DNA of 64,000 bases from Clostridia bacterium (lineage in GTDB: Bacteria > Bacillota > Clostridia > Oscillospirales > Acutalibacteraceae), in the NCBI GenBank assembly GCA_900766585.1, contig CAAFVV010000030.1:78980-142979 (forward strand), given 5' to 3'. A program made the translations under genes and the position numbers. The notes beneath the pieces were generated by a model, which saw only the letters and a list, made by a program, of their open reading frames with translations, did not search any database and had not been told where the DNA came from. Below, piece after piece: positions 1,508-44,981 of this stretch (positions are counted from its first letter, which is position 1; each line of letters opens with the position of its first letter).

Positions 1508-2992
1508 TCACCAGCTCATGCGGATCTGTTTTCCGTCCTTTGTCTCGTGCGTAAAGCCGTTGAGCCTGCCAAACGTCAGGTACAGTGTGTCCTTTTCGCT
1601 CTCCGTCTCCTGCACATAGGTGGTCACAATACCGAGAAAGCCGCTCTTTTTCGCTGTATCGAGATCCATATGTGCGCAGACAAAATCACGCGGCACAAGG
1701 GACAGGAGGGTATCCCACTGCTCTTTTTTCTCCGACGCCTGATAGACGGTCTCCTCGTGCTTTAACGTATCGTTGTTCCATACGGAGCAGGTCAGCGTTT
1801 TCTTTTCGGGGTCGAGAATATAGGTGGTGTCCTCCGTAAAGCTCTGATAATCCATGGAGTCAAAGCGGAAGCTGTGGCGGCCGTTATCGGATTCATACAG
1901 GATATCCGCCAGCTCCGTCCCCTCTTTTTTCAGTCCGTCCGCATTTTCGAAAATATGGATGTTGACCCGCCCGCCGCCGGCGTTCAGCAGTTTTTTCAGC
2001 GGATCGGTCTCCTCGACCCCCTCGGAAGTCGCAAAGCCGGTGAGATCGGGCAGGGAGAAGCTGCTGTCGGTATAAAACACCGCGGTGATCTCCGTATTGC
2101 GCCCGTCCGACCGGTCGAGCGCGCGCAGCCGCGACCCGTCGCCATACAGCGCCAGCGTCACGGTGTCGCCGGACAGGATACGGGTGTCATACTGCGCGTT
2201 TGTGCCGGTCTCGCCGTCCGCCGCCGCTTTCGTCAGCGTCTGCATAAGCGCGGGGTAACCGATTCCGTCCAGCAACGGTTTGTATTTCTCATAGGTATCC
2301 GTGCCCTGCGGATAGACTGTTTTTGCCTTGAGGTTGATCAGCGCAGGGGTCTTGTCGATCTCTGCAAGATAATATCGGCCGGAAAGTCCCGTCCCGGCAT
2401 CGTAGCCGTCAAAGTCGAACGAAAACAGCGTCTTGCCGTCCTCCTGCCAGCGGCAGACCTCCGCCGTACCGCCATGCGATCTCAGCAAATGCGGCAAAAA
2501 GCCGTCCTTTCCCCTGTCGGTGATGATCATCCGCATACTGCCGCCCTGCCGATCCGCCGCAAGGATGGCATCGGTCAGCGCGGATACCGTCTCAGCTGAC
2601 GGCGTTTCGATCGTGCAGGGCGCCGTCACCGCGCGGACATAATCGCTGTAAAAATAATACCGCACGCCGACCAAAGCGCCGAGCACGAGCAGGACGAGGA
2701 TGACCGCCGCCACCCGGAAATTCCGCTTGATCTCCGAAGCGGAATGCACTCTGACACGGCCATCGTCATACCGGTCAATGATGCTTCCGTCCGGTCCGGA
2801 TGTGGAGGTATACCGGTCCTTTGCCGCATCGCGCTGCTGTCCCTCCCTGTCCCCAAACATCTTTTTTTCGTATTCCTTGCGCTGCTTATCGTGTATACTC
2901 TGGCATCGCGTGCAGTATTCTACGTTCGGACTGCCCGTTGTCCCGCCGCACCGCTTGCAGTACCCATATCTACGCCGATCACTCTCTGTCAT
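1508..2992 (-). CDS. hypothetical membrane protein with N-terminal cytoplasmic zinc ribbon (CxxC..CxxC), single TM and large extracytoplasmic domain
   Basis: CKRCGG...CTRCQ motif. Hydrophobic segment AAVILVLLVLGALVGV. No recognisable catalytic motifs in the ~370-aa C-terminal domain. Confidence 0.5.
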   Translation of the reverse strand: MTESDRRRYGYCKRCGGTTGSPNVEYCTRCQSIHDKQRKEYEKKMFGDREGQQRDAAKDRYTSTSGPDGSIIDRYDDGRVRVHSASEIKRNFRVAAVILVLLVLGALVGVRYYFYSDYVRAVTAPCTIETPSAETVSALTDAILAADRQGGSMRMIITDRGKDGFLPHLLRSHGGTAEVCRWQEDGKTLFSFDFDGYDAGTGLSGRYYLAEIDKTPALINLKAKTVYPQGTDTYEKYKPLLDGIGYPALMQTLTKAAADGETGTNAQYDTRILSGDTVTLALYGDGSRLRALDRSDGRNTEITAVFYTDSSFSLPDLTGFATSEGVEETDPLKKLLNAGGGRVNIHIFENADGLKKEGTELADILYESDNGRHSFRFDSMDYQSFTEDTTYILDPEKKTLTCSVWNNDTLKHEETVYQASEKKEQWDTLLSLVPRDFVCAHMDLDTAKKSGFLGIVTTYVQETESEKDTLYLTFGRLNGFTHETKDGKQIRMSW

Positions 2993-3185: not shown

Positions 3186-4331
3186 GTGAAGGGGTTTCCC
3201 TACCATTATTTAGACAACAGCGCCACCACCAATGTCTGCCGCGAAGCGGCGGACAAGGCGGCCTATATGATGACCGAATGCTTCGGCAACCCGTCCTCAC
3301 TCCATTCGCTCGGCTTCGCCGCCGAACGGGAGCTGTCCGCCGCCCGCCGCGCCGTCGCCGCCCTGATCGGCGCCGAGCCGGAAACCGTCACGTTTACGTC
3401 CGGCGGCACGGAGGCGAACAATCTGGCGCTGCTCGGCTGTGCCGAAGCGATGAGTCGGCGGGGGCGGCATATCGTCACGACGGCGGTGGAGCATTCCTCT
3501 GTGTCCGAGCCACTTACCGTCCTTGAAAAACAGGGGTTTACCGTTACGCGGCTCACCCCCGGTCAAAACGGACTTGTCAGTCCCGGGCAGGTCGCTGCGG
3601 TCTGCCGCCCCGATACAATACTGGTCAGCATCATGCTGGTCAACAATGAGACCGGGGCGCGCTTTCCGATCGAGGAGATCGTTCCCGTCGTGCGCCGGCT
3701 CTCCCCGTTTGCTAAATTCCATACCGATGCCGTTCAGGCAGCGGGAAAGCTCCCGATCCGTTTGGACAAGCTGGGAGTCGATCTGCTGTCACTGAGCGGT
3801 CACAAGCTCCATGCACCGAAGGGCAGCGGCGTGTTATACCGCCGTTCCGGCTGCCGCCTGATCCCGCGCCTTTACGGCGGCGGACAGGAGTACGGGCTGC
3901 GCTCCGGCACAGAGGCGGTTCCCGCCTTTGCCGCGCTCGGCGCCGCCGTCGGTGCGCTGCCCGACCCCGCTGAATTTGAAGCGGAGACAAAAGCGCTGTC
4001 CGACCGATTGATCGCCGGTCTCGGCCGTATTCCCGGTGTTTCACTGCACCGCCCGGAATCCGCCGTGCCGTATATTGTCAGTCTGTCTGTTCCCGGTCTG
4101 CGCAGCGAAACGCTGCTGCACTTTCTGGCGCAGCGTGATGTCTATGTGTCCAGCGGATCTGCCTGCTCGAAGGGCAGACGCAGTCCCGTGCTGACCGCGA
4201 TGGGAATGTCTGCCGACGAGATCGACTCAGCGCTGCGCGTCAGCCTGTCCCGCTATAACGATGAATCCGATATCGACGCCCTGCTTGAGGGACTTTCCGA
4301 GGCGACTGCCGCATTGGCGCGCCGCAAATAA
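3186..4331 (+). CDS. nifS: cysteine desulfurase (NifS/IscS family, class V aminotransferase)
   Basis: PLP-lysine motif SGHKLHAPKGSGVLY. C-terminal SGSACS active-site Cys loop. GTG start with AAGGAG RBS. Classic partner of thiI. Confidence 0.85.
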   Translation: MKGFPYHYLDNSATTNVCREAADKAAYMMTECFGNPSSLHSLGFAAERELSAARRAVAALIGAEPETVTFTSGGTEANNLALLGCAEAMSRRGRHIVTTAVEHSSVSEPLTVLEKQGFTVTRLTPGQNGLVSPGQVAAVCRPDTILVSIMLVNNETGARFPIEEIVPVVRRLSPFAKFHTDAVQAAGKLPIRLDKLGVDLLSLSGHKLHAPKGSGVLYRRSGCRLIPRLYGGGQEYGLRSGTEAVPAFAALGAAVGALPDPAEFEAETKALSDRLIAGLGRIPGVSLHRPESAVPYIVSLSVPGLRSETLLHFLAQRDVYVSSGSACSKGRRSPVLTAMGMSADEIDSALRVSLSRYNDESDIDALLEGLSEATAALARRK

Positions 4332-4353
4332 CCGACAAAGGAGGCCATCGAAC

Positions 4354-5937
4354 ATGAATGAACCCCGTGTAAATGACAAAAACGCCCGTCCCGCCGACGG
4401 CGATATGCGCGATCAGCTTGAGGTGCTTCGCCTGATGGAGCAGTATCGCAGTCAGGAAGAGCCGCAAAGTAAGCCGACGGTGCCGCTTGCTCCCCCCGAG
4501 GAGAAGCCGACTGCCGCCCCTGAAAAAAAGCCGCAGAAGAAAAAACGCTCGCTGCGGCAGATACTGACCGGCGCGCTGTATGCCGCCATTCCCGTCGCCG
4601 GGGATCCGCCGCGGGAGATCGTCCGCAAGATCGTGTTTCTGGTCGCTTTGCTGACACTGATCGGCTCCTGCGGCTACATTGTCAATGACATGGTCATTCA
4701 GCCGGGCATTTCCGCCAATACCTACGGCAGGCTCGACGATATCTATCACAACGGGGAGCCGCTTACGCCGGAGGAGGAAAACTACACCTATCCCGAGGGC
4801 ATCCGCGACGAATTCAAAAAGCTCTACTATGTCAATTCCGACATCAGCGGCTGGTTTACCTATGTCGCCACGACGTCAAATAAATGGCTGAACATCAGCT
4901 ATCCGGTCGTCCATACCGATAATAACGACACGTATCTTGACCACGATTTCTACGGCAAAAAGAGCAAAAACGGCGCGCTGTTTACCGACTACCGCTGTCT
5001 GACCGGTCCGGATGAATACAGCAAAAATACCATCATCTACGGGCACAATATGGGCAGCGGCCAGATGTTTTCGCGCCTGAATTACCTCATCAAAAACACC
5101 TACAATATGCGCTCCGCCGCCACGTTCCAATATAACACCATCTATGAAGAGCAGACATATAAGGTATTTGCCGTTATGGTCACCAACACGCGCGAACAGG
5201 AGGGGCCGATCTTCAATTATATGCGCACCGATTTCTCGTCGGATGAAGATTTTCTCCAGTTTGTCGCCGAGTGCCGCGCGCGCTCGATGTACAACTTTGC
5301 CGATGTGGATGTCAGAGCCGATGATGAGCTGGTCACGCTGTCGACCTGTGCGCCATACAGCAGGACACATGTGCATAACAGCCGCACCGTCGTGGTGGCG
5401 CGCAAGGTGCGCGAGGGCGAATCCGCCACCGTGAATACCGCCAAGATTACCGAGAATAAAAACTGCCTGTATCCGCTGAGCTACTATCAGGAGCAGAAGC
5501 TCGATCCGCACCCGTATTATACCGGCGAATATGTCATCACGCCGGAGGGCGGTCAGACAGTGACCACCGTGCCGACCGCGCCGACAACGCCGAATACACC
5601 GATCGGAAGCAGCTCTTCTGCGCAGACCGACCGGACGACTCCTGATACACCGTCGTCCTCCTCGGCGCTGACGCCCGGTACGCAGTCGACGACAGCTTCG
5701 TCGGGCGGACAGCCGTCACATACAACGAAGCTGTCGGGAACACAGCCCGCGACATCGGGCAATACCAAACCGAGCCACACGACCGCACCGCCGACGTCCC
5801 CCTCCGGCGATACAACGGCGCCGACCGCCGCGCCGACAACAAAGCCGGAGGAGACGAAACCCTCCGAGACGCAGCCGACAGAGCCGGAGACGCCGGAAAC
5901 GACCGCCGCCCCCGCTCTCGAAGCCTCCGGTGAATAA
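4354..5937 (+). CDS. class B sortase-like membrane protein with ~140-aa C-terminal Thr/Pro/Ser-rich low-complexity tail
   Basis: ATG at 4354 with AAAGGAGG RBS. Basic cytoplasmic N-terminus, then TM IVFLVALLTLIGSCGYIV. Catalytic triad elements IIYGHNMGSGQMF (His), LVTLSTCAPY (TLxTC Cys), RTVVVARKV (Arg). Tail TTVPTAPTTPNTPIGSSSSAQT.... Confidence 0.7.
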   Translation: MNEPRVNDKNARPADGDMRDQLEVLRLMEQYRSQEEPQSKPTVPLAPPEEKPTAAPEKKPQKKKRSLRQILTGALYAAIPVAGDPPREIVRKIVFLVALLTLIGSCGYIVNDMVIQPGISANTYGRLDDIYHNGEPLTPEEENYTYPEGIRDEFKKLYYVNSDISGWFTYVATTSNKWLNISYPVVHTDNNDTYLDHDFYGKKSKNGALFTDYRCLTGPDEYSKNTIIYGHNMGSGQMFSRLNYLIKNTYNMRSAATFQYNTIYEEQTYKVFAVMVTNTREQEGPIFNYMRTDFSSDEDFLQFVAECRARSMYNFADVDVRADDELVTLSTCAPYSRTHVHNSRTVVVARKVREGESATVNTAKITENKNCLYPLSYYQEQKLDPHPYYTGEYVITPEGGQTVTTVPTAPTTPNTPIGSSSSAQTDRTTPDTPSSSSALTPGTQSTTASSGGQPSHTTKLSGTQPATSGNTKPSHTTAPPTSPSGDTTAPTAAPTTKPEETKPSETQPTEPETPETTAAPALEASGE

Positions 5938-5976: not shown

Positions 5977-7161
5977 ATGTACATTCCCGAGGAGATCCTT
6001 TTGATCAAAAACGGTGAGCTTGCCCTTAAAGGTCTGAATCGTCATACGTTTGAGGATACGCTGATCCGCAATCTGCGGTTTCGGCTGAAAGACGCCGGGC
6101 ACTTTATGATCCGCAAGGCGCAGTCCACCATTACCATTGAACCGCAGGACGAGCATGCCGATCTTGATCTTGCGTGTGAGCGGGTCAGCAAGGTATTCGG
6201 TATCGCCGCCTTTTCACGCGCTTATCGCGTCGATAAGACGATGGATGCCATTTTGGACGGTGCGGTACGGTATATGAAGGAACCGCTGTCCGCCGCCGCC
6301 ACATTCAAGGTGGAGGCCAAGCGCAGCGATAAGAGCTTTCCGCTGCGCTCCCCCGAGATCTGCGCCGAAACGGGCGCACGCCTGCTGGAGGCGTACCCCC
6401 ATCTGCGCGTGGATGTCCACGATCCGGATGTTCTGGTCATGGTTGAAGTGCGCGACTACGGTGCGTATATCCACACGATGCAGCTTCCCGGGGCGGGCGG
6501 CATGCCGGTCGGCACGGGCGGACAGGCGGCTGTGCTGATCTCCGGCGGGATCGACTCCCCCGTTGCCGCGTATATGATGGCCAAGCGCGGCATCCGTCTC
6601 ACAGCCGTCCACTTTGCCTCCCCGCCGTATACCAGTGAACGTGCCGAGCAAAAAGTCAAGGATTTGCTTGCCCGCGTGGCACAGTACGCCGGCCGCATGA
6701 GCCTTTGCATTGTTCCCTTTACCCATATTCAGGAGGAGATCCGCGAACACTGCCCCGAGGAGCTGTTCACGGTCATCATGCGCCGCTTTATGATGCGTAT
6801 CGCCTCCCGTGTTGCCCAAAGAGAGAATTGCGGTGCGCTGATCACCGGCGAGAGCGTCGGACAGGTGGCCAGTCAGACCATTCCCGCCATCGCCTGCACC
6901 GACGCGGCGGCTTCGCTGCCGGTGTTCCGTCCCCTGATCGGCATGGATAAGGAGGAGATCGTCACGATCTCGCGCAAAATCCGCACCTTTGATCTGTCGA
7001 TCCTCCCGTATGAGGATTGCTGCACGGTATTTACCCCCCGCCATCCCCGTCTGCGCCCCACCGAAGAGGCGCTGATCGAAGCCGAAAAGGCGCTCGACGT
7101 TTCCGCGCTGACGGAGGAGGCGCTTACACAGCTTCGCTTTTGCCTGATCAAACCGGAATAA
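5977..7161 (+). CDS. thiI: tRNA uracil 4-sulfurtransferase ThiI (short form, no rhodanese domain)
   Basis: THUMP-like N-terminus. PP-loop SGGIDSPVAAYMMAKRG. Typical ~390-aa clostridial ThiI next to nifS. Confidence 0.9.
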   Translation: MYIPEEILLIKNGELALKGLNRHTFEDTLIRNLRFRLKDAGHFMIRKAQSTITIEPQDEHADLDLACERVSKVFGIAAFSRAYRVDKTMDAILDGAVRYMKEPLSAAATFKVEAKRSDKSFPLRSPEICAETGARLLEAYPHLRVDVHDPDVLVMVEVRDYGAYIHTMQLPGAGGMPVGTGGQAAVLISGGIDSPVAAYMMAKRGIRLTAVHFASPPYTSERAEQKVKDLLARVAQYAGRMSLCIVPFTHIQEEIREHCPEELFTVIMRRFMMRIASRVAQRENCGALITGESVGQVASQTIPAIACTDAAASLPVFRPLIGMDKEEIVTISRKIRTFDLSILPYEDCCTVFTPRHPRLRPTEEALIEAEKALDVSALTEEALTQLRFCLIKPE

Positions 7162-7197: not shown

Positions 7198-10100
7198 TTG
7201 CTGCGTATCCTGCATATTTCCGTCGGCGGCGTTTCGCCGGACACAGCTGCGGTATGGGAAAGGGTGTTTTTGCCCTATGGTGAATCCGTCTCCGCGTCTC
7301 TTTCCGCAACGGACGAATCCTCTTTGCGCAAGCTGCTGTGTACCGACGCCAAGGGCTGTGATCTGGTGCTGCTGACCGGCGACGCTGCCTGCTGCCGCAA
7401 AGCGGTGCTGTCGCTGACCGGACCGGACGCCGTCATCCCTCTCGCCCTGACCCGCCGCATTGCCGGCTGGATGTTCCGGCAGCCCGGAAGGCTTTGGGTC
7501 TGGCTTCCCGACGGCGCCGAAAAGCAGATAGCACTGTTATCGGAATGCGTTCTGCCGCTGCTGCCCGAAAAGCATATGATCGTGCATACCGTCGGGATCT
7601 ACGGCCTCGCTCCCGAAGTAATTCAGGAAAGGCTGGCACCTTTTCTGTCCAGGACCTCTCCGGCGTGCTGTCTGTATCGGATAGATGCCGAGTGGCGGCT
7701 TCGTCTGGTTGCCCCCTGCGGTGAGGAAAGCGGGATGGAGTGTACACTCGCCGCAATCCGCAAGCAGCTCGGGGCCTATCTCTACGGGACAGACTGCCCC
7801 GACCTCTTCGGACGCGTGCAGGAATTACTGGGACTCAGAGCGCTCACCGCCGCCGTCACCGGTCTCCCGCCTATGGCCGGCCGTAAAAGTGGCGGTATCA
7901 ATTTTATTTCTGAGGATATCCCCGTCGAGCAGCCGGCAGAGCCTGGCGCTGACGCTGGAACCGACGGGCAAAACGAACCGGATCCGACCCCGTATGCGGC
8001 ACTGCGGGCTAAAGAAACCGGAAATGCCGCACTCGGTCTCTCCCTGCGGCAGGATACTTCCGCCTCGCGGCCGACCGTGCGCCTGTCTCTGACAGACGGA
8101 AGACGCCTTTGGAACAAAACGCTGACCGGCGACGATGCCGATACACTGACAGCCGAAGCGGAAAGTGCGCTCTGGGATTTGGCGCGCCGTTATCTGGAGG
8201 CGTTTCCTCTGGTCATGGCGGGCGGCGAACCGGTCGTACTCCCCGAAAAAGCGACCGATATCCCCGTTTCTCCGCTGGAAAAAGAGCAGCCGATACTTCT
8301 CCGCCCCGTGAAACGCACCTCCGAGCGCGCTTTTCGCGTTATCCTCGTCTGTATGCTGGCGGTCGTTTTGTGTCTGTCCGCCGGATTGTTCACCTATTTC
8401 CGGTTTTTCAACCGTACGCCGATCAACGCATTCCGTGATCTGGAGGCACTGTATCGGACCAATGTTTCAGCCAATGATTCAGACGAATATCCCAAGGATA
8501 TGCTGCCGCAGTTTTATTCGCTGTACAAGGAAAATGCGGATATTGCGGGGTGGATCCGGCTGGACAACAAAACGCAGAGCTATCCCGTGATGAACGGGCT
8601 GGGATCGGTTGACTACGGTTCCAGCGATTTTGCCGGGCAGCCCTCCTCCTATGGCGTCCCCTTTTTCTTTCCCGCAACGCCGCGGGCGGATAAAAACGAC
8701 TGCCTAATTATCTATGGAAACCACATGACGGATAACACCATGTTTTCCTGTCTTTTAAACTATTTGGACAACTCCTATGCGCGTTCTCACGCCCAAATAG
8801 AAATGACCACGGTATACCGCACAGGCACATGGCAGGTATTCGCGGCACTGACAGTGGATGAAAACGAGAGCGACCTGAATTTTACCCGCACGGCATTTAC
8901 CGGCGAGGCAGACCGATTGCAGTTTGTCCGCGAGCTGACAAGCCGGTCAAAGCTGACTATCACCTCAGAAGAGGTGGAAAACGAACATGAGCTTTTGCTG
9001 CTGACCACCACGCTCTCCTCCGATCCCAAGGATACCAGGCGTGTCGTTGTTGCCTTTTACCGTATAGACGGCACCAGCTCTTCCTCCACGGTCAATGTCA
9101 CGAAAAGCGCCGAGTCACAGCCCGATAACACCGTATCGGATATCCCCTCGTCTGATGACGCTTCTTCGAATGTTTCGCCGGATGTCTCCTCCGAGGACAG
9201 CCGCCCGCCCAAGCCGGATGAGGATACGTCTGAGGACGGCGGAACGGACTTTATCGAGCCGTCTGACGATGAGGACAGCCAGCCCCAGACCACAACCTCA
9301 AAGACCGCTGTTACCACGACGTCGACCAAGGCTGTAAAGCCGACCGCCTTTCCCTCCACATCGGCGGCGGAAACAGAGTCCGGCACGGCATCCGCAACAT
9401 CTGCTTCAAATACCGACACTCCGACCAGTGCGACGCTGTCCACTACGTCCGTTTCCGGCAAGACAACGACCTCCACGACCGCTAAGCCGTCGGATACTTA
9501 TGTGCCGATTCGCGAGGGTACAATCGACGAGAGCGAATACTATCCCCTGTTCCGGCTGAAAAACAGCGCCACCGAAAAGATCTTTACGCCGACGACACGG
9601 GAGGAGCTGACCCTCGGTCTGTTTTACATAGTGAAAATGGAGATGGGCTCCGCTTCGCTGATGAAAAAATCCACTGAAGCGCAAAAGGCACAGGCGGTCG
9701 CTTCCTACACCTTTGTTTTGTATTACTGTCAGAACAGCGGCAAGCCGTATGAATTCAAGTTTCCGACGTATGACCCCAACAATGCCAACGACCGCAAGAT
9801 CTATTCCGCGGTAGCGGCTGTGGCGGGAACCAAGATGATCTATCCGGAGAAGGCGCTCAAATCCCAAGCCATCAACGCCATGTACTGCGCCTCCTCTGCC
9901 GGCGTCACCTCGAGCTGCCATATGGTCTTTACGGCGAAGCTCCCCTATCTGGTCAGCGTGAAGAGCCAGTACGATACCGATGCCTATCTGAAATCGGTAA
10001 ACGGCAGCAGCATTACCGCCGAGTTTACCGTCAAGTACAGCAACCTGTTGTCGGCGATCGGTCAGTCTTTGGATCTGGCACAGTCGGAGATCTACGCCGA

Positions 10101-10467
10101 AAAGGGTGCGGTTCCGCTGTTCGCCAAAACATGGGACGGCGGTGAGAACGGCTATGTCTATCAGACAAATCTGTATTACTACAAAAACGGTAAAAAGACC
10201 TATATCACCGGCAAACAGATCCGCAACAGTGTCAACAAGCACACCTCTGCTTCCATGCGCTCCCACGCATTTACCGTTACCGCCTATGACAGCAAGACGG
10301 ATATCATGACCATTCAGACGCGCGGACACGGACACGGGCTGGGGCTTTCGCAATACGGCGCGGTGGGTTATGCCAACGAGGCAGGATGGACATATGACCG
10401 GATTCTTGCCCACTATTATTCGATCACGGAAACCACGCCCTATCAGCTCGTTGCCCCGAAATTTTAA
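7198..10467 (+). CDS. multidomain membrane protein: degenerate CinA-like N-domain + TM + pseudo-sortase B domain (Cys lost) + Ser/Thr/Asp-rich linker + SpoIID/LytB domain
   Basis: TTG start with GGAGG RBS. TM VILVCMLAVVLCLSAGLFTYF. Sortase-like ADIAGWIRLDNKTQSYPVMNG..IIYGNHMTD..ELLLLTTTLSSDPKDTRRVVVAFYRI, i.e. TLSTC replaced by TTLSS. C-terminal SpoIID motifs EAQKAQAVASYTFVLYY and TRGHGHGLGLSQYGAVGYANEAGWTYDRILAHYY. Confidence 0.7.
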   Translation: MLRILHISVGGVSPDTAAVWERVFLPYGESVSASLSATDESSLRKLLCTDAKGCDLVLLTGDAACCRKAVLSLTGPDAVIPLALTRRIAGWMFRQPGRLWVWLPDGAEKQIALLSECVLPLLPEKHMIVHTVGIYGLAPEVIQERLAPFLSRTSPACCLYRIDAEWRLRLVAPCGEESGMECTLAAIRKQLGAYLYGTDCPDLFGRVQELLGLRALTAAVTGLPPMAGRKSGGINFISEDIPVEQPAEPGADAGTDGQNEPDPTPYAALRAKETGNAALGLSLRQDTSASRPTVRLSLTDGRRLWNKTLTGDDADTLTAEAESALWDLARRYLEAFPLVMAGGEPVVLPEKATDIPVSPLEKEQPILLRPVKRTSERAFRVILVCMLAVVLCLSAGLFTYFRFFNRTPINAFRDLEALYRTNVSANDSDEYPKDMLPQFYSLYKENADIAGWIRLDNKTQSYPVMNGLGSVDYGSSDFAGQPSSYGVPFFFPATPRADKNDCLIIYGNHMTDNTMFSCLLNYLDNSYARSHAQIEMTTVYRTGTWQVFAALTVDENESDLNFTRTAFTGEADRLQFVRELTSRSKLTITSEEVENEHELLLLTTTLSSDPKDTRRVVVAFYRIDGTSSSSTVNVTKSAESQPDNTVSDIPSSDDASSNVSPDVSSEDSRPPKPDEDTSEDGGTDFIEPSDDEDSQPQTTTSKTAVTTTSTKAVKPTAFPSTSAAETESGTASATSASNTDTPTSATLSTTSVSGKTTTSTTAKPSDTYVPIREGTIDESEYYPLFRLKNSATEKIFTPTTREELTLGLFYIVKMEMGSASLMKKSTEAQKAQAVASYTFVLYYCQNSGKPYEFKFPTYDPNNANDRKIYSAVAAVAGTKMIYPEKALKSQAINAMYCASSAGVTSSCHMVFTAKLPYLVSVKSQYDTDAYLKSVNGSSITAEFTVKYSNLLSAIGQSLDLAQSEIYAEKGAVPLFAKTWDGGENGYVYQTNLYYYKNGKKTYITGKQIRNSVNKHTSASMRSHAFTVTAYDSKTDIMTIQTRGHGHGLGLSQYGAVGYANEAGWTYDRILAHYYSITETTPYQLVAPKF

Positions 10468-10504
10468 TGCAGTGCATCTGTAAAGCTGTATATCTTTACG
10501 CAGG

Positions 10505-10535
10505 AAAAGCCACCCGATTTTCTCGGGTGGCTTTT
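10505..10535 (+). terminator. Rho-independent terminator after the large sortase-like/SpoIID gene
   Basis: gccacccga-ttttc-tcgggtggc perfect 9-bp stem followed by TTTT. Confidence 0.55.
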
Positions 10536-10569
10536 CGGATGGACGATACCAGAGGATTTTCGCCGCGTC

Positions 10570-11133
10570 ATGACGGAATTCGCGGAATTTTCTCCGCATA
10601 TTGTCGCGTTGGATATCTCCCTGCCGTTTTTCGACGGCTACCACTGGTGCAGCGAGATCCGCAAGGTGTCCAAGGTGCCCATCCTATTTATCTCCTCCGC
10701 CGCTGATACTATGAATATGGTCATGGCAATGAATCTCGGCGCAGACGATTTTATCGCCAAGCCCTTTGATCAGAGCGTGCTGATGGCAAAAATACAGGCC
10801 ATGCTCCGCCGCACCTACGATTTTGCCTCTGCCGTACCGGTGATCGAGCACCGCGGCGCTCTGCTGAACACCGCGGAATACACACTGACCTACGGCGATG
10901 AAAAAATCCCCCTTTCCAAAAACGAATACCGTATTTTGTCGCTCCTGATGCAGAATAAAGGCAGCGTGATGAGCCGTGAACGCTTGATGCAGCAGCTTTG
11001 GGAGAGCGACAGCTTTGTGGACGAAAATACGCTGTCGGTCAATGTCAACCGGCTGCGCAAGCGGCTGGACAGCATCGGGCTGCACGATTTTATTACCACT
11101 AAATTCGGTGTCGGCTATCTTATTGAGGACTGA
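10570..11133 (+). CDS. OmpR/BceR-family response regulator, N-terminally truncated receiver domain (probable remnant or pseudogene)
   Basis: Begins just before the phosphoacceptor Asp (HIVALDISLP). Retains K-box region and intact winged-helix DNA-binding domain. About 50 N-terminal residues (acidic Mg pocket) are absent in every frame upstream; that space is occupied by the preceding gene's terminator. Confidence 0.6.
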   Translation: MTEFAEFSPHIVALDISLPFFDGYHWCSEIRKVSKVPILFISSAADTMNMVMAMNLGADDFIAKPFDQSVLMAKIQAMLRRTYDFASAVPVIEHRGALLNTAEYTLTYGDEKIPLSKNEYRILSLLMQNKGSVMSRERLMQQLWESDSFVDENTLSVNVNRLRKRLDSIGLHDFITTKFGVGYLIED

Positions 11134-11136
11134 TAT

Positions 11137-12123
11137 ATGAAACAATTGGCAACCTATATTAAGCAGAAATGGTGTGTTCTTGCGGTCTTTCTGCTGTTTT
11201 TCCTGATTTTTTGGCTCTCATTTACCCTTTATCACCTGCCTGTTGAGGCTGTGGTCTATCCTATGCTCCTCTGTCTCGTGTTGGGCTGCGGATTTTTAAT
11301 CGGCGGGTATCTCCGCGCGCGGAAACGGCACGCACTGCTCTGCCGTATCCGCACAATGGCGGATGCCGGGGAAGCGGAATTCCCCTCGGCGGATACTGCG
11401 GCAGAAGCGGATTACCGGCAGATCATCCGTCTGCTCTGCGAGGAGCAGCGCGTCTATCGCACCGAGCAGAGCAGGCGCTATGCCGACATGATCGACTACT
11501 TTACCGTTTGGGCACATCAGATCAAAACGCCGATCGCTTCCATGCGGCTGCATCTGCAAAATGAGGATTCCGCCCTGTCGCGCGCCCTGTCTGCCGATCT
11601 GTTCCGCGTGGAGCAATATGCGGAGATGGTGCTGACCTTCCTGCGGCTCGACAGCGCGAGCACCGACTATGTGTTCCGCGAATATGATCTGGATACTATT
11701 GTTCGGCAGGCAGTCAAAAAATTTGCCGGGGAATTTATTCGCCGCAAGCTGACACTTGTCTATGAACCGCTGCATGACACCGTGATCACCGATGAAAAAT
11801 GGCTCTCTTTTGTGATCGAACAGGTTCTGTCCAATGCGCTCAAATATACGAGAAGCGGAAGCATCACGATCACAGAGGAGCAGGGAAAGCGGCTGTGTAT
11901 CCGCGACACGGGGATCGGGATCGCGCCGGAGGATCTGCCGCGCATTTTCGAAAACGGGTTTACAGGCTATAACGGCCGTGCCGACCGGAGAGCGAGCGGC
12001 ATTGGTCTGTATCTGTGCAAGCGCATCTGCACGCAGCTTGGGCATACCATTACCGCCGAATCCGCCGTGGATGTCGGCACGACAATTACCATCGACCTGT
12101 TCAAATACCGCAGCGAGACGTGA
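11137..12123 (+). CDS. sensor histidine kinase, intramembrane-sensing BceS-like (2 TM, HisKA + HATPase_c)
   Basis: Two N-terminal TM helices with almost no extracellular loop. H-box HQIKTPIASMRLHL. N/G boxes SNALKYT, DTGIGI, GIGLYLCKRI. Confidence 0.85.
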   Translation: MKQLATYIKQKWCVLAVFLLFFLIFWLSFTLYHLPVEAVVYPMLLCLVLGCGFLIGGYLRARKRHALLCRIRTMADAGEAEFPSADTAAEADYRQIIRLLCEEQRVYRTEQSRRYADMIDYFTVWAHQIKTPIASMRLHLQNEDSALSRALSADLFRVEQYAEMVLTFLRLDSASTDYVFREYDLDTIVRQAVKKFAGEFIRRKLTLVYEPLHDTVITDEKWLSFVIEQVLSNALKYTRSGSITITEEQGKRLCIRDTGIGIAPEDLPRIFENGFTGYNGRADRRASGIGLYLCKRICTQLGHTITAESAVDVGTTITIDLFKYRSET

Positions 12124-12179
12124 GCTTCTTACAAAACTGTTAGATTTTCCGGGGGATTTGTAAGCCGATCCTATGGCGA

Positions 12180-12203
12180 TACAGATCCCCTTTTGGTATA
12201 CTA
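12180..12203 (+). promoter_or_regulatory. candidate extended -10 promoter (TGgTATACT) upstream of the bceA-like gene
   Basis: TGGTATACT about 30 nt upstream of the AAGGAGG RBS. Weak -35. Region where a BceR-type regulator would normally bind. Confidence 0.35.
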
Positions 12204-12234
12204 AGCGCAAGATCCACAAGGAGGTCACCTGAAA

Positions 12235-12999
12235 ATGAGTATGCTATCGGTAAACGGTGTACAGAAAATTTACACCACCCGTTTCGGCGGGAACCGCGTG
12301 GAGGCGCTGAAAAATGTGACATTTGACGTAGAGGCCGGAGAATACGTCGCCATCATGGGCGAGTCCGGCTCGGGCAAAACAACGCTTCTGAATATTTTAG
12401 CCGCGCTGGATAAGCCCACATCCGGCTCTGTTCTGTTAGACGGCAGCGATCTGTCCAAGATCAAGGAGGCACAGGCTGCCGCCTTCCGGCGGGATAATTT
12501 AGGCTTTGTCTTTCAGGATTTTAACCTTTTGGACACCTTTACGCTGGAGGACAATATCTACCTGCCGCTCGTGCTGGCGGGAAAGCCGTATGCGGAGATG
12601 CACCGGCGATTAGTCCCCATCGCCGATCAGCTCGAGATCAGCTCGCTGCTGAAAAAATACCCCTATGAGGTCTCGGGCGGTCAAAAACAGCGTGCGGCGG
12701 TCGCCCGGGCATTGATCACCGGTCCGAAACTGATCCTGGCAGACGAGCCGACCGGCGCGCTGGATTCCCGCTCTACCGATGAGCTTTTGCGCCTGTTTTC
12801 GGAGATCCACAAAACCGGTCAGACGATTCTGATGGTCACGCACTCCGTCAAAGCTGCAAGCCATGCGTCGCGTGTGCTGTTTATCAAGGACGGCGAGGTA
12901 TTTCACCAGATCTATCGCGGCGACAGCACCGATTCGCAGCTGTATCAGAAGATCACCGACACCCTGACCATGCTGACGACAGGCGGTGATACCGAATGA
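12235..12999 (+). CDS. ABC transporter ATP-binding protein, BceA-like (peptide antibiotic resistance)
   Basis: GESGSGKTTLLNIL Walker A. LSGGQKQRAAVARAL signature. ILADEPTGALD Walker B. Overlaps the downstream permease start (ATGA). Confidence 0.9.
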   Translation: MSMLSVNGVQKIYTTRFGGNRVEALKNVTFDVEAGEYVAIMGESGSGKTTLLNILAALDKPTSGSVLLDGSDLSKIKEAQAAAFRRDNLGFVFQDFNLLDTFTLEDNIYLPLVLAGKPYAEMHRRLVPIADQLEISSLLKKYPYEVSGGQKQRAAVARALITGPKLILADEPTGALDSRSTDELLRLFSEIHKTGQTILMVTHSVKAASHASRVLFIKDGEVFHQIYRGDSTDSQLYQKITDTLTMLTTGGDTE

Positions 13000-15029
13000 A
13001 GCTGAGTTTTTTCCCGAAGCTCGCGCTTGACGGCATCCGCAAAAACCGACGGCTGTTCCTCCCCTATATCCTCAGCGGCGCCGTGTTGGTCACCATGACC
13101 TATATTCTGTTTTTCCTCGCCTCTTCGGAGATGCTCGAGCATATGAAGGGCGGCGGCGTGCTCGGCTACATGCTGCCGATCGGCATTGTGGTCGTCAGCG
13201 TGTTTGCCGTGATCTTTATGTTTTACACCAACTCGTTCATTATCCGTCAGCGGTACCGCGAATTCGGTCTGTATAACGTGCTCGGCATGGATAAGCACAA
13301 TCTCGGACGCCTGATGCTGTGGGAAAACCTGATCGCCGCCTGCCTTGCCATCGGACCGGGGCTGCTCGCCGGCATTCTCCTCTCCAAATTTGCCGAGCTA
13401 GGTATGGTGAACCTGCTGCAGGAAACGGTCAACTATACGCTGTATATTGATTTCGGCTCGGTCGGCAGGACGGCGCTGCTGTTTCTCGGTATTTTTGCCC
13501 TTTTGCTGATCAATTCCGTGGTCAAGGTCAGAAAAAGCGATCCGCTTGAGCTGCTCCGCAGTGAAAATGTGGGCGAAAAGGCGCCGAAGGCGAATTGGAT
13601 CACGACCGGCCTCGGCATTATCCTGCTCGGCGCCGCCTACTATATCGCCCTGTCGATCAAGCACCCCTTAGAGGCACTTTTCTGGTTTATGATTGCGGTG
13701 ATCCTGGTCATCATCGCCACCTATCTGCTGTTTATATCCGGGTCTGTCGCACTTTGCCGTCTGCTGCAGAAAAACAAGGCGTATTACTATAAGCCCAACC
13801 ACTTTGTCTCTGTTTCGTCGATGACCTACCGCATGAAACGCAACGGCGCGGGACTTGCCTCCATCTGCGTGCTGATCACGATTGTTCTGGTCATGCTGTC
13901 CTCGACCATCAGCCTGTATTCCGGTGCCGAGGTAACGCTGAGGGAAAATTATCCGCAGGACATAGCGCTCGGCGTCACGCTTCCAGACATGGAGCATTTT
14001 AATGAAGGATCCTTTTCCGCCATGCGCCGCACCGTTTCCGATCTGGTCGACGACCAGATCGATGTCCACGAGTCGCACGCCATAGAGCTGGCGGGATTGC
14101 TGACCGGCGATCAGTTTTTGGCTGATCAGCAGGCGCATTCCACTCTGGATCTCTCCGTTTTGCAAAACCTGTGCTATCTGCATATCCTGTCACAGGATGA
14201 CTATACCCGTCTGACCGGGGAAACGCTCACGCTCGCCGGCGATGAGTGTCTGATCTCCTGCTACCGCACTTCATTTTCAGCCGACCGCATAGAGATAGAG
14301 GGATGTGCGGCGCTGAAAGTGAAGGGCGAAGCAGTGAAAATCCAGCTGCCGACTTATCTGATGCAGCAGATCGTTCCCTGCGTCACCTTAGTTGTGCGGG
14401 ACGCCGTCGCCCTGACAAAGCCGCTGCAAAACATGCAGAATAACGTCGGTGATTCGGTCTTAGAGCCGAAATGGTATTATAGCTTTGATGTATCCGGCGG
14501 AGCCGAGGCGGAAATGGCGGCGTATACGGCGATCAAGAAAAATATGGATAAGATCGTTATTCCCAACGAGAACGGCGGATATTCCTATCAATTAGGCTGC
14601 CGTGAAAGCGACCGACAGGGATTTTACGCGCTGTACGGTGCGCTGTTCTTCATCGGTATTCTTCTCAGCGTGGTTTTCATTTTTGCCGCCGTGCTGATCA
14701 TCTACTATAAACAAATTTCAGAGGGGTATGAGGATCAGAAGCGTTTTTCTGTCATGCAGAAGGTCGGCATGACCAAGGCGGAGATCCGCCGTTCCGTCAA
14801 TTCTCAGGTGCTGACCGTGTTTTTCCTCCCCCTTCTCCTTTCCGGCGTTCATCTCGCCTTTGCTTTCCCGATCATCTGGAAGTTGCTTCAGCTGTTCATG
14901 TTCCGCAATGTCCACTTTATGATCGGCGTCACCGCCGCTATCTTTGCGGTATTTGCGTTGATCTATGCGCTGGTGTATAAGGTGACGTCAAATGCCTACT
15001 GCGCCATTGTCAGCGGGAAAAAGGAATGA
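12996..15029 (+). CDS. ABC transporter permease, FtsX-family BceB-like (10 TM, large extracellular loop)
   Basis: 677 aa. N-terminal KLALDGIRKNRRLFLPYILS typical of BceB. Two FtsX-like 4-TM bundles flanking a ~200-aa loop. Confidence 0.85.
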   Translation: MKLSFFPKLALDGIRKNRRLFLPYILSGAVLVTMTYILFFLASSEMLEHMKGGGVLGYMLPIGIVVVSVFAVIFMFYTNSFIIRQRYREFGLYNVLGMDKHNLGRLMLWENLIAACLAIGPGLLAGILLSKFAELGMVNLLQETVNYTLYIDFGSVGRTALLFLGIFALLLINSVVKVRKSDPLELLRSENVGEKAPKANWITTGLGIILLGAAYYIALSIKHPLEALFWFMIAVILVIIATYLLFISGSVALCRLLQKNKAYYYKPNHFVSVSSMTYRMKRNGAGLASICVLITIVLVMLSSTISLYSGAEVTLRENYPQDIALGVTLPDMEHFNEGSFSAMRRTVSDLVDDQIDVHESHAIELAGLLTGDQFLADQQAHSTLDLSVLQNLCYLHILSQDDYTRLTGETLTLAGDECLISCYRTSFSADRIEIEGCAALKVKGEAVKIQLPTYLMQQIVPCVTLVVRDAVALTKPLQNMQNNVGDSVLEPKWYYSFDVSGGAEAEMAAYTAIKKNMDKIVIPNENGGYSYQLGCRESDRQGFYALYGALFFIGILLSVVFIFAAVLIIYYKQISEGYEDQKRFSVMQKVGMTKAEIRRSVNSQVLTVFFLPLLLSGVHLAFAFPIIWKLLQLFMFRNVHFMIGVTAAIFAVFALIYALVYKVTSNAYCAIVSGKKE

Positions 15030-16297: not shown

Positions 16298-18115
16298 TTA
16301 TTTTACGTCGCCGTCATAGTAGCCGTCAGGTCCCGCCTGACCGGCATCTCCCTGCGGAGGAACAGCGCCGTCCTGCTGCGGTGCATTGGCTTGATAGATC
16401 TTCGCCGAGATCTCATAGAAAGCCTTCATCAGCTCTTCCTGCTGCGCCTTCATCGTGTCATAATCCTCGCCCTTGAGGGTCTCTTTCAAAGCGTCGATCT
16501 TGCTCTGGAGCGCCGCCTTGTCGCCGGCATCCAGCTTGTCTCCCAGCTCCTCGATGGACTTCTCGCACTGATAGACCGCCTGATCCGCCGCGTTGCGCGT
16601 GTCCACATTTTCGCGTTTTTTCTTATCCTCAGCGGCATACTGCTCGGCATCATGGACAGCCTTCTCCACATCCTCCTTGCTCATATTGCTGCTGGAGGTG
16701 ATGGTGATATGCTGCTCGTGACCGGTGCCGAGGTCTTTTGCACTGACGTTGACGATGCCGTTGGCGTCGATGTCAAACGTTACCTCAATCTGCGGCACAC
16801 CGCGGCGCGCCGGGGCAATGCCGTCCAGACGGAACAGTCCGAGTTCCTTGTTGTCGCGGGCAAACTCACGCTCGCCCTGCAGAACATGCACATCCACGGA
16901 CGGCTGATTGTCCGCGGCGGTGGAGAACACCTGGCTCTTTTTGGTCGGGATAGTCGTGTTGCGCTCGATGACCTTGGTCATGATACCGCCCATGGTCTCC
17001 ACGCCGAGCGACAGCGGCGTAACATCCAGCAGCAGCAGGCCCTTGACCTCGCCGCCGAGCACACCGCCCTGCAGTGCCGCGCCCATGGCGACACACTCGT
17101 CGGGGTTGATGCCCTTAAACGGCTCTTTGCCGAGGATCTTCTGCACAGCCTCCTGCACGGCGGGAATACGGGACGAACCGCCGACCATCAGCACCTTGTC
17201 GATCTGGGAAATGGACAGACCGCTGTCGGACAGCGCCTGACGCACCGGCCCCATGGTCGCCTCAACCAGATCGGCAGTCAGCTCGTTGAATTTGGCACGG
17301 GTCAGCGTCATATCGAGGTGCTTAGGGCCGGTCGCATCCGCCGTGATAAACGGCAGATTGATATTGCTGGTCGTCATACCGGACAGCTCGATCTTTGCCT
17401 TTTCCGCCGCCTCGCGCAGACGCTGCAGCGCCATTTTGTCGGCAGAAAGATCAACGCCGGTTTCCGCCTTGAAGCCCGCAATCATCCAGTCGACGATCTT
17501 CTGATCGAAGTCGTCGCCGCCGAGCCGGTTGTTGCCCGCCGTCGCCAGCACCTCCTGCACGCCGTCGCCCATCTCGATAATGGACACATCAAACGTACCG
17601 CCGCCAAGGTCATACACCATGATTTTCTGGTCGGCTTCCTTGTCGATGCCGTAAGCCAGAGCAGCCGCCGTCGGCTCATTGATGATACGCTTGACATCCA
17701 GACCGGCAATCTTGCCCGCGTCCTTGGTCGCCTGCCGCTGCGCATCGGTAAAATACGCCGGAACCGTAATGACCGCTTCCGTGACCGGCTCGCCCAGATA
17801 GGCTTCGGCATCCTGCTTCAGCTTTGCCAGGATCATGGCGGAAATCTCCTGCGGCGTATAGGATTTACCGTCAATCGTCACCTTATGCGCCGTACCCATC
17901 TGACGCTTGATAGACGAAATGGTGCGGTCGGGGTTAGAGACCGCCTGCTGTTTTGCCACGCGTCCGACGATACGCTCGCCGTCCTTTTTAAACGCCACAA
18001 CGGACGGCGTTGTACGCGCACCCTCCGCATTGGGGATAACAACGGCTTCGCCGCCCTCAATAACCGACACGCAGGAATTTGTGGTACCCAAGTCAATACC
18101 GATGATCTTTGCCAT
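16298..18115 (-). CDS. dnaK: molecular chaperone DnaK (Hsp70)
   Basis: [35 protein letters not shown]-like motifs. 605 aa. Confidence 0.97.
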
Positions 18116-18171
18116 ATCTATTACCTCCTATTGATTGTCAACCTTTATTTTCCAAAAAAGTGTTAGTCACT

Positions 18172-18732
18172 TTAATTGGCTACTTTGACCATGGCAGGAC
18201 GGAGAATTCGGTCGCCCATGCGGTATCCCTTCTGAAACACCGCCGTCACGGTCTCGGGATCGACACCGTCAGCGTCCTCCCGCATCACGGCGTTGTGCAC
18301 CTCGGGATCAAATGGCGCGCCATCCGCCTCAATTTCCTCAAGCCCCAGCTTTTGCAGTGCCTCACGGAGCTGCCGGATCGTCATATCAACGCCAGTCTTG
18401 TATTCCTCACCCGCCGGCGCATCCACGGCGCGCTCAAGATTATCGAGCGCGGGCAGCAGAGCCTTGACTGTTTCCGCACGGGTAAACGCGCCGATATCCT
18501 CTTTTTCCTTTTCGGTGCGGCGCTTATAGTTGGCATATTCCGCCAGGACACGTTTATAGGCATCCTGCTCTGCCTCAAGCTCTTTTTTCAGCTTTTCCAG
18601 CTTAGCGGCGTCCGCCGTGCGGCTGCGGGAAGTTTTTTTCTCCTTTGCCGCAGGGGCTGCCGGTTCGGATTCAGTCGCCGCCGGCTCGGCAGTTACTTCT
18701 TCCGCTGTTGCTTCTTTCTTTTTGTCCTCCAT
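18172..18732 (-). CDS. grpE: nucleotide exchange factor GrpE
   Basis: Acidic N-terminus, coiled coil, C-terminal GrpE fold. Position between hrcA and dnaK. Confidence 0.9.
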   Translation of the reverse strand: MEDKKKEATAEEVTAEPAATESEPAAPAAKEKKTSRSRTADAAKLEKLKKELEAEQDAYKRVLAEYANYKRRTEKEKEDIGAFTRAETVKALLPALDNLERAVDAPAGEEYKTGVDMTIRQLREALQKLGLEEIEADGAPFDPEVHNAVMREDADGVDPETVTAVFQKGYRMGDRILRPAMVKVAN

Positions 18733-18753
18733 CAGGGGTTCCTCCTGTTTTGT

Positions 18754-19776
18754 TTATTCCGTCAACTCTTCCAGAATCCTGCCCAGTGCCCCGGCAAAAT
18801 ATTCCACGCGCGGAATCAGTCGCGCATAGTCCATTCGCAGCGGTCCGATCAGCCCGATAGAGCCGACGCTTCCGCCGCCGCGGTAGCGGGTCACAATAAT
18901 GCCGGAACCGGTCAATTCAGGCCGCGGACTCTCTTCGCCCAATACCACGCGCAATCCGCCGGAATGGGCAGAAAGCATGCGGGAAAGCGAATCACGCTGC
19001 GCCAAAAACTGCAGTATGCCGTAAGCGTTTTCCTGCGTCAGATCGTCCCGCCGCAGCAGATTGAACTGACCGGCGAGGAGCAACTCAAAATGTGCTGCCT
19101 CCGCGGCAAGCTCCACAAAGGCGGAGACGAGCGGCAGACAGGCAAAGCCATATTCTCCCATGACCGCCATCACGCCCTGCGCGTCGGCGGCGCCGATCTG
19201 CGCAAGCGGCACGCCGCAAAACCGGCGCTGAAGCTCGTCAGAGAGACGAGCCATCCACTCCGCAGGCACCTCGCGGTCGGAACGGGCGACACAGCTGCGG
19301 ACAATGCCCGAGCCGGTCATCAGAATGATCGTGGTCACCTGCGGCGAAAGAGCCAGCAGCTCAATCCGCTGCACCGTGGCATTCTGCTCCCACGGTGTTG
19401 TCGATACGGCAGCACAGCGCGTCTCCTCCGCCAGAGCCTTAGACGCGGTGTCCACCAGTTTTTCCGGATCACGGGAGCACCCTTCCAGCATGCCGTCGAT
19501 CTCCCGGCGGCTCTTTTCATCCAGCCGGCGGCGCGGCATCAGGTGGTCAATATACACTCGAAATGCCGCCGCGGTCGGAACACGCCCCGCCGATGTATGC
19601 GGCTGAAACAGATACCCACGCGCAGAAAGCTCTGCCATATCGTTGCGGATGGTCGCCGAGGACACAGTATTGTCCAGTTGATCGACCACCGCTTTGGAGC
19701 CGATCGGCTCACCGGTGCGGATATATGTCTCGATCACCGCGCGCAGAACCTGCTGCCTGCGTTCCCCCAGCTCCAT
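18754..19776 (-). CDS. hrcA: heat-inducible transcriptional repressor HrcA
   Basis: N-terminal wHTH ELGERRQQVLRAVIETYIRTGEPIGSK. Start placed at the internal ATG with GAGGTG RBS, because the longer ORF would overlap CIRCE. Confidence 0.9.
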   Translation of the reverse strand: MELGERRQQVLRAVIETYIRTGEPIGSKAVVDQLDNTVSSATIRNDMAELSARGYLFQPHTSAGRVPTAAAFRVYIDHLMPRRRLDEKSRREIDGMLEGCSRDPEKLVDTASKALAEETRCAAVSTTPWEQNATVQRIELLALSPQVTTIILMTGSGIVRSCVARSDREVPAEWMARLSDELQRRFCGVPLAQIGAADAQGVMAVMGEYGFACLPLVSAFVELAAEAAHFELLLAGQFNLLRRDDLTQENAYGILQFLAQRDSLSRMLSAHSGGLRVVLGEESPRPELTGSGIIVTRYRGGGSVGSIGLIGPLRMDYARLIPRVEYFAGALGRILEELTE

Positions 19777-19807
19777 AGTTGTCACCTCTTTGTATTTCAC
19801 ATCTGGA

Positions 19808-19834: not shown

Positions 19835-19842
19835 CGATGTAT

Positions 19843-27609: not shown

Positions 27610-27647
27610 AGAAAGCAACAGTTTACGATCAAGGAGCCTGTGGCTTT

Positions 27648-44972: not shown

Positions 44973-44981
44973 TTTAACGGC

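Follow-up and report, generated by a model that had tools for sequence, protein, structure and literature searches.

The locus and the fusion protein

We analyzed 64,000 nucleotides (nt) of a Clostridia bacterium of the Acutalibacteraceae, order Oscillospirales (assembly GCA_900766585.1, contig CAAFVV010000030.1, positions 78,980 to 142,979); this whole stretch is referred to as the window. One of its open reading frames (ORFs) encodes a protein of 1089 amino acids (aa) in which a decayed CinA, a transmembrane (TM) helix, a class-B sortase stripped of its catalytic dyad, a disordered linker and a SpoIID/LytB domain are joined in a single chain. It is a genuine membrane protein, conserved among gut Clostridia, and belongs to a family with the ground plan CinA–TM–active SrtB–spacer–SpoIID/LytB. 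The gene and the parts of its product are listed below; structural confidence is given as the predicted local distance difference test (pLDDT) score of AlphaFold2 (AF2) models.

7198..10467, + strand: fusion gene, from the ORF list; 1089-aa bitopic membrane protein (CinA-like, TM, pseudo-sortase B, linker, SpoIID/LytB)
7198..8232, + strand (aa 1-345): CinA-derived region, predicted cytoplasmic; MoCF-like, probable KH and PncC-like parts, both catalytic-motif regions lost
8185..8226, + strand (aa 330-343): juxtamembrane motif RRYLEAFPLVMAGG, i.e. RRYLEAxPxVMAGG; near-invariant family-wide in a 36-sequence alignment
8332..8400, + strand (aa 379-401): single TM helix; hydrophobic run FRVILVCMLAVVLCLSAGLFTYF, AF2 helix 374-403
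8470..9063, + strand: class-B sortase fold without the catalytic dyad, predicted extracellular; TIGR03064, PDB SrtB match, Foldseek
9073..9519, + strand (aa 626-774): disordered Ser/Thr/Asp/Glu/Pro-rich spacer; composition, pLDDT ∼25
9232..9267, + strand (aa 679-690): clade-specific linker motif EDGGTDFIEPSD, i.e. EDGGT[DE]FIEPSD; conserved inside the fast-evolving Ser/Thr linker
9520..10464, + strand (aa 775-1089): SpoIID/LytB domain, predicted lytic transglycosylase; TIGR02669, AF2, Foldseek; Glu815 and GHGxGxSQxGA intact

The ORF starts with TTG, preceded 7 nt upstream by a GGAGGTG ribosome-binding site, and runs without interruption over 1089 codons. A first-pass annotation of this DNA, made from the sequence alone, had divided the product into four modules. 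That division is correct. Pfam alone is weak on all three domains, and the modules are detected by domain searches with hidden Markov models (HMMs) and by Foldseek, the sortase fold and the SpoIID domain among them. Every peptide quoted in the annotation was located: YGNHM (aa 506-510), LLLLTTTLSSD (599-609) and RRVVVAFYRI (614-623) in the sortase-like part, and EAQKAQAVA (827-835), GHGHGLGLSQYGA (1043-1055) and ILAHYY (1069-1074) in the SpoIID part. The full-length AF2 model, built from 9 sequences, averages a pLDDT of 58. Only its CinA-like and sortase parts are well predicted, with confidence at aa 1-220, 260-335 and 440-625, the last being the sortase region.

Degeneracy in two of the three enzyme modules, and a low-complexity linker as a possible spot for misassembly, might lead one to take the gene for an assembly or sequencing chimera, a doubt already raised in the first-pass annotation, or for a decaying pseudogene. 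These explanations are effectively refuted. The exact 1089-aa product is called on three contigs, with close variants in NCBI, ENA and Logan assemblies, and its reading frame is unbroken. Eight full-length homologs with 35-99% identity share the architecture, which recurs at 35-88% identity across many species. A scan of species-representative genomes recovered ∼42 loci of the fusion family in metagenome-assembled genomes (MAGs) of Oscillospirales, with ORFs of 1095-1251 aa; the same fusion thus recurs in dozens of independent genomes. These loci are labeled Acutalibacteraceae, Oscillospiraceae, Ruminococcaceae or simply 'Clostridia', and the hosts whose guts they come from are human, goat, yak, buffalo and chicken. 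Furthermore, the folded parts are much better kept than the linker. Between the window protein and its relative P0003, identity is 84% in the SpoIID domain, 68% in the dead sortase, 55-65% in the CinA-like parts and 41% in the linker. Because the value for each domain lies far above that of the linker, all folded parts must be under constraint, the enzyme head most of all.

The SpoIID/LytB domain

SpoIID/LytB is the only module of the fusion protein in which the catalytic residue is intact. The NCBIfam model SpoIID_LytB (TIGR02669) matches aa 811-1078 with E = 2e-30 and 106.6 bits, above its cutoff of 83.3, whereas the SpoIID equivalog model (TIGR02870) fails, at 72.8 bits versus a cutoff of 234.75. 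In a search of PDB sequences, Clostridioides difficile SpoIID was recovered with E = 4e-10 when the whole protein was used as query and 2e-12 with the domain alone. The domain-only AF2 model (aa 770-1089, 77 sequences) reaches a pLDDT of 97.6, and its only significant PDB neighbors in Foldseek are SpoIID structures, 5i1t (E = 1.8e-14) and 4rwr (E = 6e-12).

We take the catalytic Glu of SpoIID to be E101 in C. difficile and E88 in Bacillus subtilis. E101 is an essential catalytic residue of the C. difficile enzyme (PMC6221140). The corresponding residue of the window protein is E815. Its partner in annotated SpoIID is the Glu of the GEM motif, and each of the 74 ungapped SpoIID-family sequences has Glu in this column. 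The earlier statement that the SpoIID signatures are intact is therefore borne out, and now extends to E815. The sporulation framing that accompanied it is unsupported, given the failure of TIGR02870, the iscS/thiI neighborhood of the gene (see below) and the existence of dockerin-bearing relatives.

Outside the fusion, the closest relatives of this SpoIID subfamily are proteins of ∼415-470 aa with an N-terminal type-I dockerin in place of the membrane module (P0040, P0041, P0046, P0047, P0049 and P0050; loci L025, L032 and L033). In these the lytic domain is apparently displayed on cohesin scaffolds. The window also encodes a second SpoIID-family protein (48603..50009, + strand), in which a short SpoIID-like N-terminus is followed by three PG_binding_1 repeats as in SleB. 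It matches PF08486 with E = 8.8e-6 and TIGR02669 and TIGR02870 weakly, and resembles the SpoIID domain of the fusion only marginally.

A class-B sortase fold without its catalytic dyad

The region next to the TM helix is recognizably a class-B sortase. The NCBIfam model sortase_srtB (TIGR03064) matches aa 386-618 with E = 5.8e-26 and 91.3 bits, under the equivalog cutoff of 153.75. The best sortase match in a phmmer search of PDB sequences is Staphylococcus aureus SrtB (SaSrtB; E = 1e-22), and Foldseek comparisons with class-B sortases give E values down to 3e-15 and TM-scores of 0.67-0.83. Alignment to SaSrtB pairs YGHH with YGNH and LSTC with TTT, which places N508 at the position of the catalytic His and T605 at that of the catalytic Cys. 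The active-site Arg is kept: R615 aligns with SaSrtB R233, and the Arg is retained in most relatives. As the catalytic His and Cys are both replaced, the module cannot be a cysteine transpeptidase.

These results agree with the first-pass annotation on the replaced Cys of TLSTC and on the conserved Arg within RRVVVAFYRI, and they modify it in two respects. The module had been called cysteine-less; the catalytic Cys is indeed missing, but two other cysteines, C502 and C518, are present and are unconserved in relatives. The His had been described as displaced, from YGHNM to YGNHM. However, His509 is unconserved, relatives having N, I, S, G or V there, and hence the catalytic His has been lost rather than shifted.

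Loss of the dyad extends to 32 of 32 full-length relatives from the genome scan, in which His has given way to Asn or Ser and Cys to Thr, Pro, Asp or Ala; across the dead sortases as a whole the Cys position is occupied by T, P, D, A, S, N, G, E, Q or K. In a rough neighbor-joining tree of the sortase modules, which has no support values and is open to long-branch effects, most dead modules form one clade beside the stand-alone sortases. A few nest among the active ones, suggesting additional independent losses.

The CinA-derived region, juxtamembrane motif and TM helix

CinA similarity in the N-terminal region is faint at the sequence level. CinA_KH (PF18146) scores 17.3 bits (E = 0.005) against a cutoff of 27, and neither MoCF_biosynth nor CinA (PF02464) gives a Pfam match in the window protein. 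The motifs GGLGPTxDD, TAESCTAG, YSxEIK and GITGxAGP are absent from it and present in most relatives, and the PncC region is partly deleted or disordered (aa 225-260). The AF2 model of the CinA-like region has a pLDDT of ∼75-85. With this model, Foldseek finds Thermus thermophilus CinA (4cta, E = 1.6e-13 over ∼419 columns) and Streptococcus mutans CinA (6mr3, E = 1e-9). Among relatives, that at locus L022 has full Pfam matches to all three parts (MoCF 1.9e-36, CinA_KH 2.8e-26, CinA 3.4e-49), and P0008 matches CinA_KH and CinA only (CinA E = 2e-48). The structural matches, together with relatives that carry complete MoCF, KH and CinA hits, show that the CinA ancestry of the N-terminus is real. 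What the first-pass annotation had described as weak, colinear similarity to CinA is thus a decayed remnant of an intact CinA that most relatives keep.

Between this region and the membrane lies the juxtamembrane motif, in which nine columns (R330, R331, Y332, E334, P337, V339, A341, G342 and G343) are invariant in the 36-sequence alignment. The motif is also found in family members with an intact CinA; to our knowledge, it is no part of canonical CinA. The TM helix has a K/R-rich flank on its N-terminal side, as read from the sequence, and the protein would accordingly be oriented N-in/C-out (type II).

The linker

The spacer measures 149 aa, in line with the ∼150 residues given in the first-pass annotation, and consists of 42% Ser and Thr, 16% Asp and Glu and 9% Pro. 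AF2 pLDDT is ∼25 across aa 638-777, with no rise at EDGGTDFIEPSD. We had considered docking of this motif on a domain as a general mechanism and dropped it, because pLDDT does not rise there and the motif is clade-specific; the linkers of other clades carry other short acidic-hydrophobic motifs (EGDELVGETT, SSDIVPDIELP, DPGEVTIPP). Family linkers range from 90 to 470 aa and may be S/T-rich, P/T-rich, composed of Ala/Glu/Ser/Arg-rich repeats, or built of runs of repeated folded-looking segments. This variety fits a spacer in which length and flexibility outweigh sequence.

A family of CinA–TM–SrtB–spacer–SpoIID proteins in the Oscillospirales

To place the window protein, we searched exhaustively with a family profile in HMMER and obtained 579 cluster representatives (50% identity) at E ≤ 1e-30. 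The best 148 were typed with locally built HMMs and scored for the His/Cys/Arg triad of the sortase.

CinA + sortase + SpoIID: 56 of the best 148; 27 with intact triad, 1 with His kept and Cys lost, 28 dead
CinA + sortase only: 71 of the best 148; 40 with intact triad, 5 with His kept and Cys lost, 26 dead (many fragments)
Sortase + SpoIID, no CinA: 10 of the best 148; 1 with intact triad, 0 with His kept and Cys lost, 9 dead
Remaining 11 of the best 148: 10 SpoIID only, 1 CinA only

At least 56 of the 148 thus contain all three domains, and since roughly one in two of these retains the whole triad, the pseudo-sortase of the window is a derived, degenerate state. On the same count, the pseudo-sortase scaffold of the first-pass annotation is not a purpose-built one. 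A consensus made from 36 full-length members starts with a complete canonical CinA, and motif typing reveals a graded series. Most members keep GGLGPTxDD of MoCF together with TAESCTAG, YSxEIK and GITGxAGP of PncC, an intermediate clade keeps the PncC motifs only, and the window clade (P0001-P0007) has none. The window protein is therefore a doubly degenerate member of its family, in CinA as well as in the sortase.

Family members, examples being MCI8442061.1 (Provencibacterium sp.), MBQ7302112.1, MBQ2676077.1 and MBR5486271.1, are deposited as 'SpoIID/LytB domain-containing protein', 'class B sortase', 'competence/damage-inducible protein A' or 'nicotinamide-nucleotide amidohydrolase family protein'. 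Each is named after its best-scoring domain, which hides the family in annotation. In the literature searched we found nothing on a sortase–SpoIID, CinA–SpoIID or CinA–sortase fusion, or on pseudo-sortases. The earlier remark that the architecture is not a described one therefore holds for that literature; in sequence databases the architecture is common, under generic names.

Genomic context

The fusion gene is the last of four genes in a cluster with short intergenic gaps. The three genes ahead of it are the following.

3186..4331, + strand: cysteine desulfurase, iscS/nifS-like (NCBIfam NifS/IscS); first gene of the conserved cluster
4261..5937, + strand: stand-alone membrane-anchored class-B sortase (Pfam Sortase 2.4e-13, TIGR03064 3.5e-39)
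5977..7161, + strand: thiI, tRNA 4-thiouridine synthase (Pfam ThiI 1.3e-68)

A promoter-like site lies upstream of iscS (3128-3156), 36 nt separate the thiI stop codon from the fusion gene, and no terminator-like site was seen between these two. The four genes form an apparent operon, and by their arrangement would be co-transcribed. The stand-alone SrtB has intact YGHNM, TLSTC and Arg, and ends in a Ser/Thr/Pro-rich tail of ∼170 aa; from its sequence it can be regarded as a paralog of the dead module. No C-terminal sortase sorting signals were found among all window ORFs scanned.

The neighborhood is conserved. In every locus with sufficient flank, thiI neighbors the fusion gene; the fusion lies downstream of iscS/thiI in ∼35 loci, and the full order iscS–srtB–thiI–fusion recurs in ∼28. 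The triad of the stand-alone sortase is intact in 24 of 24 readable loci. In related lineages iscS and thiI are otherwise adjacent, the stand-alone SrtB having been inserted between them in the window clade. Fusions with an intact triad, P0173 (Provencibacterium), P0183 and P0243, show the order iscS–thiI–fusion with no sortase gene between. At locus L086, a gene for CinA–TM–active SrtB is followed by a separate gene for a 687-aa TM–dead SrtB–linker–SpoIID protein (9174..11237, + strand), a fission or fusion variant of the same system. Wherever a locus has two sortase modules, the one joined to SpoIID is dead.

Outside the window clade, four unrelated contigs carry the spore-germination gene ypeB upstream of iscS–thiI–fusion and divergent from it, at these positions.

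L082, 3751..5106: ypeB
L084, 1965..3224: ypeB
L085, 2113..3444: ypeB
L087, 2473..3828: ypeB

It is not beside the cluster in the window or in L001-L042. The divergent ORF that occupies the ypeB position in the window (1508..2992, − strand, 494 aa) was considered as YpeB and rejected, since it has no similarity to YpeB and no Pfam or NCBIfam match. No clear sporulation markers were found among the screened genes of the 64-kb window.

Directly downstream of the fusion, 10570..15029 (+ strand) encodes a response regulator, a histidine kinase, an ABC ATPase and an FtsX-type permease. It looks like a BceRS/BceAB-type envelope-stress or peptide-antibiotic module, and is not kept beside the fusion in most other loci. 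Elsewhere in the window, the long ORFs 18109..19878 (+), 44779..47088 (+), 47645..48580 (+) and 26910..27782 (−) have no Pfam or NCBIfam match; some of these may be spurious frames opposite real genes.

Proposed function and alternatives

Sequence and structure comparisons establish the identities of the domains, the loss or retention of their catalytic residues, the conservation of architecture and synteny, and the existence of relatives with intact domains. On the question of function, we lean toward a peptidoglycan lytic transglycosylase that is tethered to the membrane and has a long reach. The TM helix and the compact dead-sortase domain would form a pedestal at the membrane surface, and the ∼150-residue disordered, Ser/Thr-rich stalk would give the catalytic head its reach into the wall. 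Sortase chemistry would be supplied in trans by the intact SrtB encoded two genes upstream. We infer each of these elements, namely the lytic-transglycosylase activity, the reach of the spacer and the division of labor with the upstream sortase.

Several observations weigh against this proposal. Asn occupies the old His position in 28 of 32 relatives and the Arg is mostly kept, which hints that the old active-site region may retain some function beyond that of a pedestal. The full-length AF2 model, with its low pLDDT, is silent on inter-domain contacts. In addition, two relatives with a dead sortase, P0230 and P0247, show no sortase gene between iscS and thiI, nor any elsewhere in the available flanks. 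We accordingly rejected the general rule that a dead fused sortase is always offset by an adjacent stand-alone sortase, and claim compensation for the lineage of the window only, because ∼28 loci fit but these two relatives do not.

The idea of a non-catalytic adaptor, put forward in the first-pass annotation, assigns the dead module an active part: its groove would bind a stem peptide, lipid II or a protein with a sorting signal, and so target or gate SpoIID. There is precedent in degenerate LytM domains (EnvC, NlpD and B. subtilis SpoIIQ), which are non-catalytic partners of wall hydrolases. The sortase fold and its fold-determining motifs are conserved, the Asn is fixed, the Arg is kept in most members, and the dead module stays joined to SpoIID in three gene arrangements, being the inactive one whenever two sortase modules are present. 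Its concentration in one clade of the neighbor-joining tree suggests long persistence after inactivation. However, the residues at the Cys position are highly variable, unlike a redesigned binding site, and AF2, with a pLDDT of ∼25, shows no docking of the conserved linker motif. Moreover, the active triad kept by about half of the three-domain relatives means that the architecture does not by itself entail binding without catalysis. We consider an adaptor role possible but unlikely. A broader version, in which CinA works in a transmembrane cell-envelope process and the dead sortase has been repurposed as a recognizer of peptidoglycan or lipid II that targets or gates the transglycosylase, is more speculative still. 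The case for CinA in the envelope comes from its recurrent covalent linkage to sortase and SpoIID, beside iscS–thiI and across an order of Clostridia, a 'Rosetta-stone' clue.

The same SpoIID fold and catalytic Glu, in hosts that are Clostridia and in a gene that several other lineages carry two genes from ypeB, raise the question of whether the fusion is the functional engulfment SpoIID of its host in an unusual form. The domain passes the generic model, but the equivalog model fails by a wide score difference (72.8 versus 234.75 bits), and identity to the solved SpoIIDs is ∼25%. The iscS–thiI cluster with its short gaps suggests housekeeping co-expression, and ypeB does not adjoin that cluster in the window or in L001-L042. 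SpoIID in the strict sense is marked by sporulation-specific expression and by partnership with SpoIIP and SpoIIM; the genes around the fusion are iscS, srtB and thiI. The closest domain relatives include secreted, dockerin-bearing proteins. A stalk of 150-470 aa is foreign to known SpoIIDs, and 1089 aa with three extra modules contrast with a simple anchor and SpoIID domain of ∼340 aa. An engulfment enzyme is, on this evidence, improbable, and we rank it last among the functional readings.

Significance

All three domain families are known. What is new is their fusion across the membrane, undescribed in the literature searched yet abundant and unnamed in databases. The family is widespread in gut Oscillospirales, with hundreds of 50%-identity clusters and members in MAGs from human, ruminant and poultry gut. 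It offers a natural series, from fully active proteins through those with dead CinA-MoCF motifs to those in which CinA and sortase are both dead, that is useful for asking what each module is needed for and how pseudoenzyme domains persist. The cellular role of CinA has long been unclear, and the fusion provides a testable lead on it. The architecture also bears on how Gram-positive anaerobes place wall-cleaving enzymes away from the membrane. The chief interest lies not in the dead sortase itself but in the decay series and in the covalent bond that, throughout an order, couples CinA in the cytoplasm to wall enzymes outside the cell.

Comparison with known systems

The nearest relatives of the window protein are the other members of the unnamed Oscillospirales fusion family, with which it shares domain order, a single TM helix, the juxtamembrane motif and a site after iscS–thiI. 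Members of the Provencibacterium type differ in having an intact CinA and sortase triad and no separate sortase gene in the cluster. In the window clade, neither set of catalytic motifs survives, and an inserted gene for a stand-alone SrtB separates iscS from thiI.

Taken domain by domain, the head resembles SpoIID (B. subtilis; C. difficile 5I1T/5TXU; B. anthracis 4RWR; TIGR02669/PF08486) in its fold, its catalytic Glu and the motifs AxKAQAVAxxTY and GxGHGxGxSQxGA, and in being an extracytoplasmic, membrane-tethered domain. It is, however, only ∼25% identical to SpoIID and fails the equivalog model. The Zn-binding Cys/His cluster seen in C. difficile SpoIID is missing from it, four inserted residues follow the catalytic Glu, and it sits on a 150-aa stalk behind two other domains. 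The sortase module shares with class-B sortases (S. aureus SrtB 1NG5/4LFD, C. difficile and B. anthracis SrtB) the fold, including the N-terminal helix and the one in the beta6/beta7 region, ∼30% identity to SaSrtB, the conserved Arg and a site just outside an N-terminal TM anchor. It differs in the replacements His130 to Asn and Cys223 to Thr (SaSrtB numbering), and in being fused to other domains on both sides.

CinA (T. thermophilus 4CT8/4CTA; S. mutans 6MR3), which we take to combine a PncC nicotinamide mononucleotide deamidase with a COG1058 ADP-ribose pyrophosphatase, has the same colinear three-part fold as the N-terminal region with its MoCF-like, probable KH and PncC-like parts. Unlike CinA, that region is without GGLGPTxDD and ESCTAG/YSxEIK, is membrane-tethered, and is followed by the family-specific juxtamembrane motif. 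Finally, the degenerate LytM proteins EnvC, NlpD and B. subtilis SpoIIQ resemble the fusion by analogy only, in that a dead wall-enzyme fold is kept in a protein of peptidoglycan hydrolysis. Their fold is unrelated, and their regulatory or scaffolding role has been shown experimentally, whereas for the dead sortase of the fusion a comparable role is suggested by that analogy.

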